DNA from: Myxococcota bacterium
Lineage (GTDB): Bacteria; Myxococcota_A; SURF-8
Assembly: GCA_965140415.1 (NCBI GenBank)
Contig: OZ223209.1
Span: forward strand, 3,136,001 to 3,200,000
Length of the DNA: 64,000 bases
Reading direction: 5' to 3'
Shown here: positions 27,575 to 42,124 of the stretch, piece by piece
Layout of the letters: each line of letters opens with the position of its first letter
How positions within the stretch are numbered: the first letter of the stretch is position 1
Made by a program: the position numbers and the translations under genes
Notes under the pieces: model-generated
What the model saw: only the letters and a program-made list of their open reading frames with translations
Told to the model about the DNA's origin: nothing
Databases searched by the model: none

Positions 27575-28880
27575 CACAGCTGTCCCGTTAACTATTGAAT
27601 AATTCCAACTGCTTACCAAAAGGGATATTGGTAGGCAGGGAGGCGTTTGCCTTTAGCACCTGTAAAATGGGGCTTTCCTCGAAAAGCGTGACGCTTAAAA
27701 TCTGTAGAATCGTCATCAAACTGTGCTCGAGATTCAGATCCTTTTTCAGAATCGCAACCAACAGATAAACCGTAATCGAAATCCACACTTGTGTCTTTAC
27801 CGCATTGGCGCTGCGACCGTAAAACGCCTTGATTCGCAGATTCTGTTTGATCCATTTGAAAAACACTTCGATACTCCACCGCAGCCGGTACAAGTCCGGA
27901 ATCGTTTCCGAAGAAAGATCAAAGTTGTTGGTCAGCCAGACAAATCGGGTGTTCGATTCTGGATCGATGTAGTTGATTCGCCGCACATGATCCGGATAGC
28001 GTCGAATGGAAGCACGGTCCACGAAGCTCACGGTCTGATCGGCGCGCAATCCCAAGCTCTTGTCGATGGGGTGTGAATAGATTCGCTTTGTGCTGGTGTT
28101 CTTGCTGGCTCTAAGAATGAAGAAGGCTCCCGCCCGATGGATGCGATGCATGCGTCCGTAATCGACATAACCGCGATCCATGATATAAAATGCGCCCGCT
28201 TCCAAAGGCAGAATATCCAGTAAACGCTTGTCATGGCTCTTGCCGTCCGTAATGGAAATAAAGGCGGGAATCCGTCCGCGAAGGTCCATTTGCGTGTGAA
28301 GACGCAATGATCCATTGTATCGCGTGAATTTGGCCCATGGAAAAAGCGACAAACTCAAATCAATCGCTGTCGTGTCGAGCGCGTAGGTGGTGGCGTCTAG
28401 GTCGACGGCGAGCTTCTCGTCCGCATACAGCGCGCGGGCGCGCCGTATCAGGGGCTGAGCGAGATCTGCGTAAATGCGCCAGTCGCGTTTTTCATTCGCT
28501 CTGGCCAGTGTGTTGCGAGAGACTTTTCCACGCAGACCCATGTGATAAAGTTTCAGCTGAATAGCCCGCAAGGTCGCTTCAATATCGCGCAGGCTTTCGC
28601 GGTAGGCCAGCTGGGCAAATGCCATGCAAATGAATTGATCCATACAGGAAAAGGTACGAATGCGCTTGTTCCCCTGATAGCGATTGACACAACGGCGGAA
28701 ATGGCGATCCGGCAAATAGTCGAGCACTTGCGAAAAGACAGTCTGTGTCATTTTGATCTCCTGCATTTCTTGACTATTCGAAATGCAGAAAAACTATCGC
28801 GGACACCTGATAATCACAAATTCAATCTGTAATAATAAGTAGTTGTAGCGCTGAACCTGGAAGTTAGCGGGACAGCTGTG
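27575..28880 (-). mobile_element. Complete IS4-family insertion sequence (1306 bp)
   Basis: Terminal IRs CACAGCTGTCCCGTTAACT (27575-27593) and the reverse complement of 28862-28880 (18/19 match); 10-bp direct repeat GGCTCCTGTC at 27565-27574 and 28881-28890. Confidence 0.95.
27588..28766 (-). CDS. IS4 family DDE transposase (DUF4372-type N-terminus)
   Basis: FSCMDQFICMAFAQL..RESLRDIE, ALDTTAIDL, MDRGYVD, YRLRWSIEVFFKWIKQ (Y-R-E-K signature). Confidence 0.95.
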   Translation of the reverse strand: MQEIKMTQTVFSQVLDYLPDRHFRRCVNRYQGNKRIRTFSCMDQFICMAFAQLAYRESLRDIEATLRAIQLKLYHMGLRGKVSRNTLARANEKRDWRIYADLAQPLIRRARALYADEKLAVDLDATTYALDTTAIDLSLSLFPWAKFTRYNGSLRLHTQMDLRGRIPAFISITDGKSHDKRLLDILPLEAGAFYIMDRGYVDYGRMHRIHRAGAFFILRASKNTSTKRIYSHPIDKSLGLRADQTVSFVDRASIRRYPDHVRRINYIDPESNTRFVWLTNNFDLSSETIPDLYRLRWSIEVFFKWIKQNLRIKAFYGRSANAVKTQVWISITVYLLVAILKKDLNLEHSLMTILQILSVTLFEESPILQVLKANASLPTNIPFGKQLELFNS

Positions 28881-39106: not shown

Positions 39107-40411
39107 TCACTCGGCCAATATCGGCTGTAATCCCAAAACACCATAGTGTTTTAAATAGGTTTTTGAAACCCCAGGGCACATCTTTTTCAGTGAACACGGG
39201 CTGCAACAATCTGCAAAACTCATCTCCCGATTCATCGGAGTGTCAACCAGAATCATGTTCGATACCGATTCTTTTTCTTTTCCCTGCCAAACCGAGTTAG
39301 CCAGGTAAACATCTTTTCGCTGGTTCGTATGCGATCGCAATCCCTGCAAAATGCAGACAGGCAAATTCCCGACGTGCAGAGGATCGGCATTGTCCGACAA
39401 CCTGAATTCAAAAGGCAGTAAGGCATGAGCGACGCATTCGTAATCGGGAACGACGCGTTCAAAGTTTTCCTTGGCGCCGCCGATGATCCAGGGATAATCC
39501 AGCGCGATGCGAAATACCTCAAAGCGATCCAGCATGTCGATAATTTCCGGCAAGGTCGCCAGATTCTGCTTAGCCAGAATCGTAGTCGTGAACATGTGCC
39601 TGCCGGTAAGTTCTTGCTGGCTGCGATCCCCAAACAACGCCCGCATGTTAGCCAGAGCGGCACGTTTCTTTTCGAATAAATCCGCAGTTTGTGTAAGAGA
39701 GGCTTCCGTCTTTTTATCAGCAGCGTGGATGCTCAATCCGATTCCGGTCAATCCGCGATCCAGCAGATTTTGCAGATAGGCTTTATCTGAGATTATAACG
39801 CCATTTGTTTTTAAGAGAATGGACTTGAATTCCATTTCATGGGCGATTGTAACCAATTCCGGCAGATCCGGGTGCAGCGTCGGTTCCTGGCCGGTCAAGG
39901 TAAGCGCGTCATACCCTTCCCGTTTGGCCTTTTTCAGCGTTTGAGTCAGTTCGGCTAGCGTCAATTTCGGATACGATTCATCCCGGCAGCGGTCGGTGCA
40001 GAAAAGACAGGCGGACACGCAGGAAAACCCGACGATCAGATCGAGTCGTTTTCTGCCAACGATGGAGATGTATTCTTCATCCACGCGGTCGAACAAGGCG
40101 TCCAATTCCAAATCGGATAATGTCTGGGTGTTCTTTTCCACAATCATGGCGACTGCCTGTGCCAGTCGTTCGATTTCGGGGGTGGCGTTGCCTTCGATAT
40201 TCATCGCCAATCCCAACCGTCCCGCCTTTACGAAGGCTTTTTCCGAAAGTTTTGCCGAAAAGAGAACCAGACAGAAACTTTGTAGATTTTTGATGTCTCT
40301 AAAATCGAGTTCAACGCGAGAGGTTCCGCGCACCGCATCCAGAACGAACGTTCCCGCAAACGGCTTTTTGGGCCGGATAGGAGCAAGATAAGAAAGGAAG
40401 GGGTGCGGCAT
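39107..40411 (-). CDS. Radical SAM protein with N-terminal extension and C-terminal Cys cluster
   Basis: CVSACLFC (CX3CX2C), TGQEPTLH, KTNG, NLPVCIL, C-terminal CSPCSLKKMCPGV..TYL..YG. Confidence 0.88.
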   Translation of the reverse strand: MPHPFLSYLAPIRPKKPFAGTFVLDAVRGTSRVELDFRDIKNLQSFCLVLFSAKLSEKAFVKAGRLGLAMNIEGNATPEIERLAQAVAMIVEKNTQTLSDLELDALFDRVDEEYISIVGRKRLDLIVGFSCVSACLFCTDRCRDESYPKLTLAELTQTLKKAKREGYDALTLTGQEPTLHPDLPELVTIAHEMEFKSILLKTNGVIISDKAYLQNLLDRGLTGIGLSIHAADKKTEASLTQTADLFEKKRAALANMRALFGDRSQQELTGRHMFTTTILAKQNLATLPEIIDMLDRFEVFRIALDYPWIIGGAKENFERVVPDYECVAHALLPFEFRLSDNADPLHVGNLPVCILQGLRSHTNQRKDVYLANSVWQGKEKESVSNMILVDTPMNREMSFADCCSPCSLKKMCPGVSKTYLKHYGVLGLQPILAE

Positions 40412-40447
40412 GTAACATCCAGATTACAATCGTTAAATGATTCTAAA

Positions 40448-40476
40448 TAATTAGGGGATTTTGCCTGCTTTGTCAA
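40448..40476 (-). promoter_or_regulatory. Sigma70-like promoter for the radical SAM gene
   Basis: TTGACA-N17-TAATTA on the minus strand, 37 nt upstream of the start. Confidence 0.55.
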
Positions 40477-40542
40477 TGAACGAATCCAGCTAAACGAGAG
40501 TTGGAGAAACAGGTTTCAAGTCCCAAAAACTGGGGAGCAAAG

Positions 40543-40778
40543 CGGAAAGGCGGAAATCCACAAGACCCACCATCAAGGAAGGGTTTCCCTTCCACCTTCC
40601 GTCACCTGCCACGCATCATCTGTGGCTTGTAATAATATTTAGCCACAGATTCTGTGGTTTTGTGCCATAGTCTTACGCGATCGAAGATCGTGGAAGGCTG
40701 TGTGTCTTCAATAAGTTACACACGGCCTCCCGGAATTTCCATTCCGTGAGACCATGGCACATCGTGATTACTCGATGG
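40543..40778. ncRNA. Candidate structured non-coding element with a four-way junction and flanking hairpins; family unknown
   Basis: Closing stem 40661-40675/40747-40761 encloses three abutting hairpins (40676-40692, 40693-40730, 40731-40746); further hairpins at 40577-40593, 40618-40650, 40760-40777. Confidence 0.5.
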
Positions 40779-40858
40779 ACAGAAATGAATAATAGATGGT
40801 CTAACACCTGGTCTGATACTTCAAGCTTTGAAAAACACATGGGAATGGGAATTGAACA

Positions 40859-40906
40859 GAAAAAAGAAGGCCGTTTCAAGAAAGACGTATTCCCGAAACG
40901 GCCTTT
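40859..40906 (-). terminator. Rho-independent terminator after the 40928 gene
   Basis: AAGGCCGTTTC...GAAACGGCCTT stem followed by TCTTTTTT on the minus strand. Confidence 0.65.
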
Positions 40907-40927
40907 AAAATCACGCGAAGCTATTCA

Positions 40928-42043
40928 TCAGGGCATACAGGCGCACTGCCCGCCTGCATCCTGCGGAGTGCCGCCATTGGGACACTGGTTGTTTTCACAG
41001 GCGTAGACGCAAACCGAGAAACGACATAAGCCGTTGGTGCAATCGGCGACGGCATTATTCCAAGGTGGCGTGATGGTGTCCGAGCCGCAATCGGCGGCAG
41101 TCGAACAGGTTGCCTGCGCGTTTTCGCTGGTGACGATACACGACAAATCCTGCGCGCAAGGACCGGCGTCGGCATGAACGCCCTCGCTGCTGCACACCTC
41201 TCCGAATTCAGCTCCACCCGTATTCAATACGCAGTAGCAACTATCTCCGACCGCCATCGGATCGTGCTGATCGTCGCAAGCCCCCTGATCATCGCATCGT
41301 TCCATGCAGGAGGAATATCCGCAACTTCCTTCTACGCAGTCCGCGCCGGGCATACTTTGCTGGTTGGCACAGTCCTGATCGGTTGTACAGGTCAACTGCG
41401 CGTTGGGTTCCATGCCGATGCATTGCGTCTGCTCGCGACAGGTTACGCCATCGACATTAACCACGCCGAAGGGGCAAGGTTGATCCAGACTGGCATTGCC
41501 GCCATCCACTTTGCACAAGGCTTTCGGGTAACAGACGTATTGATCGCAGAAAAATCCCAATGGGCAGCCGCTGTCATCCTGGCAACCGGTTTGGGTGCAG
41601 ATCAGAAATTCGGACTGGGCGCTGTCTTCGAATTTGATATTCAAACAGCGTTCACCGTCCGAACAATCCGAATCGACATAGCAAGTCTGGCATTCCAGAC
41701 TGCGACAGGTCTCGGTGCTTTCGTCGCAGAACTGGTAGTTATCGTAGCTGCATTGACAGCCGGTGTTTACGTCGTCATCCCCATCCGCCGAGTCGCCGTC
41801 TGCCGTATCGCCGTCGGTGTTTTGATTGTTTGAATCGCCATCGACAAGCGGGGGATTGCTTGTATCCCCATCCGTGTCGCCATCCGTAGCAGGATCGACT
41901 TTCACGCACACCCCCAGCTGACAAGCCTCGTCGTCTGCACAATCGCGGTCGAGTTCGCACGCGGTTTCGCCATCGCTGTTACATCCCATCACCAGCACTG
42001 CTGCCCACAAGATCACCATAGCCACGATCACAAAGCGTTTCAT
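40928..42043 (-). CDS. Cys-rich lipoprotein with DGD linker and a duplicated ~90-aa Cys module
   Basis: Start ATG 42043 behind AGGAGA; lipobox VMGC; C..D.DC (Dickkopf-N/EB-like) units. Confidence 0.78.
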   Translation of the reverse strand: MKRFVIVAMVILWAAVLVMGCNSDGETACELDRDCADDEACQLGVCVKVDPATDGDTDGDTSNPPLVDGDSNNQNTDGDTADGDSADGDDDVNTGCQCSYDNYQFCDESTETCRSLECQTCYVDSDCSDGERCLNIKFEDSAQSEFLICTQTGCQDDSGCPLGFFCDQYVCYPKALCKVDGGNASLDQPCPFGVVNVDGVTCREQTQCIGMEPNAQLTCTTDQDCANQQSMPGADCVEGSCGYSSCMERCDDQGACDDQHDPMAVGDSCYCVLNTGGAEFGEVCSSEGVHADAGPCAQDLSCIVTSENAQATCSTAADCGSDTITPPWNNAVADCTNGLCRFSVCVYACENNQCPNGGTPQDAGGQCACMP

Positions 42044-42124
42044 TTCAATTTTCTCCTGATTCTTCCTCACGATCATTCATTCGCTACAAGTACTTCAGTT
42101 ACGCCCAAACACGCATACCACTGT

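Follow-up and report, generated by a model that had tools for sequence, protein, structure and literature searches.

REPINs (REP doublets forming hairpins; REP for repetitive extragenic palindromic) and the REP-associated tyrosine transposases (RAYTs) have mostly been studied in Proteobacteria, and the two have been argued to be long-lived, vertically inherited and dependent on a single host-encoded RAYT. In 2011 Bertels and Rainey (PMC3116915) described a REPIN as two inverted REP units with a spacer, having conserved ends, compensatory changes and a cognate RAYT; a figure legend of the same paper sets a stable hairpin against a less stable 'clover', which is thought to be recognised by a RAYT dimer in an IS200-like way. 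REPINs and RAYTs are known from Pseudomonas fluorescens SBW25 and E. coli (PMC3116915; PMC3337134), a classical REP feature is a GTAG or CGTC tag at one end (PMC3733652), and a preprint by the authors of PMC3116915 states that REPIN populations decay after the loss of their RAYT. Here we describe a structured intergenic span, positions 40543-40778 of a stretch of 64,000 nucleotides (the window) on contig OZ223209.1 of a Myxococcota bacterium (assembly GCA_965140415.1, positions 3,136,001 to 3,200,000). The conserved core of this span is probably a REPIN in the clover fold that acts as single-stranded DNA (ssDNA), is nested here in a miniature transposon of the IS5 style (IS for insertion sequence) and has a cognate clade of RAYTs.

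The span is non-coding mobile DNA, a mosaic of two dispersed repeats, and contains no gene. The initial annotation had taken it for a single standalone unit, which it is not, since its 236 nt combine two unrelated repeat families. The left part belongs to a family that we call repeat A (see below). From 40632 to 40803, on the plus strand, follows one copy of a dispersed element of about 187 nt ('MITE B', MITE for miniature inverted-repeat transposable element), delimited by an nhmmer census, its termini and its TA flanks. Conservation of this family spans, in window coordinates, 40618/9 to 40803. The right end of the window copy is intact, with a terminal inverted repeat that ends in TC and is followed by TA at 40802-40803; the left terminal 10-14 nt are absent and the end of repeat A is found in their place.

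Within the element lies the core (40661..40761, assigned to neither strand), which is defined by being the only part kept in other genera, by covariation and by its DNA fold, and whose copy in the window is the master core sequence of the genome. It can be read as two inverted, non-identical REP-like units, each composed of a 15-nt box, a small hairpin and an 11-nt box, with a short spacer between them. The left unit (40662..40702, plus strand) consists of the box GTGCCATAGTCTTAC, hairpin H1 (40676-40692, GAA loop) and the box GGAAGGCTGTG; the right unit (40721..40760), read on the minus strand, consists of GTGCCATGGTCTCAC, hairpin H3 (40731-40746) and GGGAGGCCGTG. The spacer (40703..40720) forms the top and the loop of the central hairpin H2 (40693-40730). 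In ssDNA of either strand the boxes would pair into a closing and a central stem while each unit retains its hairpin, which would yield a four-way junction without linker bases, a fold that may form in ssDNA in vivo.

A perfect four-way junction had been noticed at this site in the initial annotation. All its stems are present, and the three enclosed hairpins abut without linker bases; the word perfect does not hold, because the closing stem (40661-40675 with 40747-40761) has at its 15 positions 13 Watson-Crick pairs, one T.G and one A.C mismatch. H1 has 7 pairs, one of them G.T, H2 has 13 positions including one A.C and one T.G and a loop of 12 nt, and H3 has 6 pairs and a TTCC loop.

Outside its own genome the element is represented by its core. 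When 41 genomes were searched at the DNA level, only 40661-40761 (query positions 30-130) matched elsewhere; these matches are 71-87% identical, and a genome has several of them. R1, a covariance model of the junction, found a match in seven of the ten genomes of the order, which are the same ten as those of the class; there was none in G005 (79% complete), G007 and G008. Among 150 genomes sampled from the phylum six match R1, all in the class, and none of the 141 outside the class does. The matches of a 17-letter degenerate pattern in public contigs were mostly due to chance; among those listed only records from Myxococcota, all metagenome-assembled genomes, proved real by nhmmer. The related genomes are few in number and mutual kin.

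In these relatives the core is kept and both side hairpins covary. An alignment (A3) was made by fitting to the model and contains rows of both strands; 88.0% of its cells pair, as compared with 79.2 ± 0.4 in shuffles (none of 500 reached this value) and 32-44% when the partners are shifted. Changes on both sides of a pair were found for six of the seven pairs of H1, for all six of H3, for 5 of 14 in the closing stem and for 7 of 13 in the central stem. The side hairpins have several unrelated sequences among the rows and the stem boxes are nearly constant; one pair of H3 is A-T in 13 rows and C-G in 15. The spacer is far longer in some relatives, in which the core reaches 132-141 nt.

The link to RAYTs comes from the relatives. 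The neighbours of their cores are unrelated housekeeping genes, except for one open reading frame (ORF) in G001 that matches the Y1 transposase family (RAYT). In G004 an ORF of 161 amino acids lies between two inverted single half-cores (box, small hairpin, box), at distances of 31 nt from the ATG on the 5' side and of 33 nt from the stop codon on the 3' side; judging from the sequence, a deletion of the gene would leave exactly the four-way-junction core. The ORF belongs to NCBIfam NF047646, REP-associated tyrosine transposase (90.2 bits, cut-off 80), as does its orthologue in G006 (89.6 bits). Orthologues with 50-57% identity are found in G000, G002, G003, G006 and G007 and none in G001, G005, G008 and G009, so that the clade is present in five of the seven core-bearing genomes (G000, G002, G003, G004 and G006). 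The HUH and the Tyr-x-His-x-Asn-Pro motifs are invariant in the eight aligned proteins. Since six of the eight loci of the clade carry their own flanking inverted repeats, starting GGGTG(C/G)CA, the arrangement in G004 is the rule for the clade and no accident. At the G003 locus and at one of the G002 loci these repeats are diverged versions of the unit of the core. A distinct clade of HUH/Y1 RAYTs would thus act on the core.

The half-cores around the RAYT gene of G004, the covarying core in the relatives and the 88 loci of the repeat in its own genome all fit an ssDNA-folding mobile element, one of the two identities proposed in the initial annotation. As a separate observation, cores on contig 169 of G002 (L180) and in G003 (L050) are arranged as short tandem arrays, with a spacing of about 324 nt, and are accompanied by a repeat beginning GTGCCATGCTTGG; this repeat also flanks, in inverted orientation, a second copy of the RAYT in G002.

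The 187-nt element is small, has no coding capacity and carries imperfect inverted repeats at its termini. Of its 48 full copies compared, 36 have TA on the left, 35 on the right and 27 at both ends, where TA could be the element's own; just beyond TA, C or T predominates on the left and G or A on the right. In G004, G006 and G009 the same core lies inside a different element of about 225 bp, and the termini of an 872-bp IS agree with those of this element at 16 of 17 bases. This IS is flanked by TA and encodes an IS5 family transposase (NF033580, 148.5 bits, cut-off 110; PF01609, E 1e-18). Further sets of arms surround the core in G009 and G006, and also in G001, G002 and G003. At least four sets of arms and termini, unrelated to one another, thus enclose the core, and from its presence in unrelated vehicles we conclude that it is a portable module.

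The termini, the TA flanks and the outside bases, which are as at a CTAG-like target, would also be expected of an ordinary MITE, in which the palindromic interior is kept as a fold-back that helps a DDE transposase to join the ends; the RAYTs would then be uninvolved and the gene in G004 a chance insertion. The termini of an IS5 family IS on the vehicle of the relatives, the central position that the core always has in its vehicle and the broken RAYT orthologue in the own genome (see below) agree with such a MITE. We nevertheless regard it as unlikely: the arms and termini around the same core fall into four or more unrelated sets, and boxes that are kept across genera next to small hairpins that covary follow the recognition logic of an HUH enzyme and not that of a simple hinge. 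The inverted repeats with the GGGTG(C/G)CA start, present at six of the eight loci of the RAYT clade, also speak against a chance insertion in G004.

An empty vehicle was not found in G008, which has the 872-bp IS and neither a miniature derivative nor the core. In the same genome there are about 30 matches to the IS5 family transposase of the 872-bp IS, most of them with in-frame stop codons. The genome of the window harbors, at C1:5425783-5426196 and in two more copies, a 926-bp IS with a PF01609 transposase, TA on both sides and termini that start GAAGCC; like the 872-bp IS of G006 it is a small IS of the IS5-like type, and its termini are unlike those of the 187-nt element.

The genome of the window is a single contig of 5.98 Mb, in which dozens of copies of 40630-40794 are present in both orientations with 87-97% identity. 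From 40 copies of the 187-nt element an nhmmer profile was made, which gave 151 hits in this genome; these merge into 88 loci (50 on the minus and 38 on the plus strand); 50 of the loci are full length, about 187-191 nt. The element is a long imperfect palindrome, because it matches its own opposite strand over the whole length (E about 1e-13). Contigs of three DNA sequencing runs break at the repeat and none bridges or skips the element; compared with the flanks, the summed depth of the core is higher by a factor of a few hundred. The repeat explains the breaks of short-read assemblies at these sites. Four copies or part copies are clustered within 2.8 kb at C1:850698-853458.

By a rough, ORF-based heuristic gene model, 79 of 87 loci are intergenic, and 43 of these 79 lie in convergent, 34 in tandem and 2 in divergent gaps, the genome-wide numbers of such gaps being 741, 2737 and 741; in the tandem gaps 15 copies have the orientation of the genes and 19 the opposite one. 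This strong bias towards the 3' ends of genes would suit a REP- or BIME-like element (BIME for bacterial interspersed mosaic element) that the host has domesticated for protection of mRNA 3' ends, for bidirectional termination or for the binding of gyrase or a nucleoid protein, and a palindrome working either way would do so independently of orientation. The same bias is equally expected if selection removes insertions from promoter regions, the counts depend on the heuristic just mentioned, and the closing stem is not followed by a T run.

The variation among 48 full copies bears on the same point. Private variants per column amount to 0.58 in the core and to 0.59 and 0.74 in the two arms, and private mutations that are equally dense in core and arms speak against purifying selection on single copies. 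For these reasons we consider a domesticated element quite improbable. Shared variation, on the other side, is 5.0% in the core versus 19.6% and 14.7% in the arms. Single copies thus decay freely and the lineages that were still copying kept the core, which indicates that the core matters in cis for propagation and not, site by site, for the host. Within the core, conservation is lowest in the spacer, 40703..40720, with 18.1% non-consensus cells versus 2.4-3.6% in the six stem segments.

When 63 cores were compared with the master, 7 were identical, 6 differed by one and 7 by two positions, and the differences ranged up to 24; 6 had insertions or deletions. The population of the 187-nt element thus looks old, diverse and decaying. 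The resident IS, in contrast, comprise three types whose copies are 99.6-100% identical and a fourth, the pair of 1287 bp, with 91% identity. Such a diversity of cores fits the decay of REPIN populations after RAYT loss stated in the preprint cited above.

The folding of the window copy had initially led to the proposal of a novel non-coding RNA (ncRNA) or ribozyme. With RNA parameters 40543-40778 gives z = -7.45 for the minus and -7.40 for the plus strand, and none of 200 shuffles folds as well; DNA folding of the core, 40659-40763, gives z = -8.47 and -7.44 for the two strands. That both strands fold equally well pointed to palindromy of the DNA rather than to a strand-specific RNA. With DNA parameters the minimum-energy fold of the window core is the junction on both strands, and with RNA parameters that of the window copy is a long rod instead. 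The rod is not the conserved fold, because H1 of the relatives is shorter and lacks complementarity to H3; the three-hairpin junction is adopted by 18 of 19 cores of relatives versus 6 of 14 cores of the own genome.

A structured ncRNA or ribozyme in many copies, with the junction as its functional RNA fold, would be in accord with the strong z-scores and with the covariation of two helices across genera. It would, as a new family, also be in accord with the search of Rfam, which gave no match at the gathering score in the whole window, chance-level matches only in 40380-40960 with E up to 10, and no match on the cores of six relatives, near which only a tRNA was found. The pair types tell otherwise. 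In 33 best-strand rows (7 partial or doubtful rows having been dropped) 1261 paired cells comprise 1035 Watson-Crick, 91 G.T, 70 A.C and 65 other combinations, and this near equality of G.T and A.C, without any strand asymmetry, argues against selection on one RNA strand. The orientation in tandem gaps is unbiased (15 versus 19), the core of individual copies decays as fast as the arms, and no conserved promoter or terminator moves with the core. The arms of the junction have 1x1 mismatches at most and no large internal loops, and the window copy prefers the rod under RNA parameters. A functional RNA at these sites therefore seems to us highly improbable, and the proposal of a novel ncRNA or ribozyme is not supported. 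One specific candidate was the hairpin-type self-cleaving ribozyme. When this ribozyme is built on a four-way junction, adjacent arms carry two large internal loops that dock; this candidate was rejected, the arms here having single mismatches at most and Rfam giving no match.

Several observations weigh against the core being a REPIN with a cognate RAYT clade inside an IS5-style vehicle. The RAYT orthologue of the own genome (C1:4582411-4582875; L245:1501-1965) has an in-frame TAG nine codons past the HUH motif and by its sequence looks like a pseudogene; since it also has no flanking repeats, the RAYT link rests on the relatives. Among these, exact core units are present only at the RAYT locus of G004, G001 and G009 carry cores without an orthologue of the clade (at least 50% identity), and G007 has an orthologue without a core. 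The RAYT in G001 belongs to another clade and is flanked by classical REPs of the GTAG type; a core sits between two such REPs, and the two G001 cores near the RAYT probably belong with the GTAG-type REPs of that gene, which makes the association of this RAYT with the core indirect. The units of the core start GGTGCCATAG, and no GTAG or CGTC abuts the hairpin. The covariation alignment, A3, has the fit to the model and the mixed strands mentioned above.

On the side of the vehicle, none of the four PF01609 IS types of the own genome (1348, 1341, 1287 and 926 bp) shares termini with the 187-nt element, and no empty site was found for it that would prove a TA duplication or show the true mobile unit to be the core or the whole element. 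PF13358, as expected of an IS630-type partner, was absent from the search of the own genome, and solo ends of the element adjoin housekeeping genes and no transposases.

An intact RAYT of another clade is encoded in the own genome at C1:4046707-4047214 (L230:1408-1914; NF047646, 181.7 bits). Two classical GTAG REPs of 28 nt, perfect inverted repeats that begin GTAGGTCGG, flank this gene, and the genome has only a few more copies of them.

With these points taken into account, a REPIN nested in a miniature transposon is still the reading that we prefer. The 187-nt element with the REPIN at its centre resembles an IS5-type miniature transposon and has in this form reached about 88 mostly intergenic sites with a bias for the 3' ends of genes. 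A DDE transposase would have spread the 187-nt vehicle, and in a genome in which the RAYT looks dead the 88 copies would have spread with this TA-flanked vehicle. The hosts in which the nested REPIN was found are three kinds of vehicles with TA flanks or inverted repeats and, in a single genome, a classical REPIN of the GTAG type, in whose spacer it lies. We tentatively suggest, as a possibility that is rather less likely to be true than to be false, that the REPIN has a preference for inserting where other palindromic mobile elements have a single-stranded apex, that the resulting chimeras are moved both by the HUH RAYT and by the DDE transposase of the IS5 family, and that in this way a REPIN population outlives its own RAYT, which seems to be the case in the genome of the window.

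The family shares with REPIN-RAYT systems the two inverted units with a spacer, the conserved ends and the lesser conservation of this spacer, the compensatory changes, the tens to hundreds of extragenic copies around a master sequence, a RAYT flanked by the units and the existence of two folds; the junction of the core corresponds to the clover in the legend of Bertels and Rainey (PMC3116915). It differs from the described REPINs in that the hairpins of its units are non-complementary, and for this reason the clover is the conserved fold and in most relatives also the most stable one. Its units have GGTGCCA as their start and no GTAG or CGTC tag, its RAYT clade is barely above the NCBIfam cut-off (about 90 versus 80 bits), the lineage belongs to the Myxococcota, and the REPIN is nested in IS5-type miniature transposons or in another REPIN.

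The ends of IS200/IS605 elements and of the gene-less PATEs (palindrome-associated transposable elements) have distinct left and right subterminal hairpins with short recognised flanks, are processed by a Y1 HUH enzyme on ssDNA and have no long terminal inverted repeats. The distinct hairpins flanked by short sequences, the Y1 HUH enzyme and the lack of long terminal inverted repeats of its own are common to these ends, in general terms, and to the core. Unlike in IS200/IS605, the enzyme is a RAYT (REP_Tyr_transpos in NCBIfam, not transpos_IS200) and the boxes of the core pair, which closes the junction.

Bacterial MITEs with TA flanks include the Correia and RUP elements. With MITEs derived from IS5 the 187-nt element and its counterparts in the relatives have in common the size of about 190-225 bp, inverted repeats at the termini, a TA at either side, a non-coding sequence and an intergenic location, and the termini of the relatives' vehicle are common to a resident IS of the IS5 family. 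In contrast to such MITEs, the interior is a REPIN that is conserved across vehicles with unrelated termini, and in the own genome there is no matching IS. ERIC (enterobacterial repetitive intergenic consensus) sequences, also named IRU (intergenic repeat units), are likewise imperfect palindromes of 100-200 bp that are intergenic and occur in both orientations. No transposase is known to be linked to ERIC, whereas links to RAYT and IS5 are seen for the core and its vehicles, and the sequences are not related. In the limited set of literature that was searched there was no account of this family or of REPINs nested in MITEs.

The family shows the proposed clover recognition fold as a conserved structure backed by covariation, brings a new REP tag and a divergent RAYT clade in a lineage of the Myxococcota, and has the same REPIN within several unrelated miniature transposons. 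Should the nesting be an active strategy, it would link two transposition systems and bear on how elements persist after loss of their enzyme. For annotation, a tempting but false novel ncRNA is removed and about 88 highly structured intergenic sites are accounted for.

Repeat A is present in the window as a truncated left part (40507..40631, plus strand), recognised by BLAST in the own genome, where full copies run about 125 nt beyond the point equal to 40631. These copies are conserved over about 204 nt, with similarity up to about 295 nt; one of them is C1:4041120-4041323 (L009:221-424) on the minus strand. BLAST gives 19 further places in the own genome, and the search across the order found, besides these 19 matches, 26 in G004, 5 in G001 and 3 in G008. 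The consensus folds into a long rod with both-sided changes in 8 of 56 pairs. No Rfam match and no link to a transposase was found for repeat A, nor was it found beside any of the RAYT loci. Three of its copies adjoin copies of the 187-nt element.

Other helices listed in the initial annotation were all recovered from the sequence. The hairpin GGAAGGG-ttt-CCCTTCC (40577-40593) belongs to repeat A; where that repeat is complete, the 3' arm of the hairpin has the far end of the element as its partner instead, and the alternative pairing of 40543-40555 with 40590-40601 belongs to repeat A as well. CATCG/CGATG (40760-40777) and CCACAGA-t-TCTGTGG (40643-40657) are also there. The stem of 10 bp formed by 40618-40627 and 40641-40650 is 100% complementary, yet specific to the window locus; it is an accident of the junction, because in it the end of repeat A pairs with the start of the 187-nt element.

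Two signals that had been placed on either side of the span were likewise recovered, both on the minus strand and outside the repeats. At 40905-40867 there is an intrinsic-terminator-like hairpin with a T run that belongs to the upstream gene, 40928-42076 (minus strand), and at 40476-40447 there is a promoter-like site with 10 of 12 matches, upstream of the radical SAM gene (39107-40411, minus strand; Pfam PF04055). Elsewhere in the window, 27759-28406 on the minus strand encodes a PF01609 transposase domain and is part of one of the ten copies of the 1341-bp IS in this genome.

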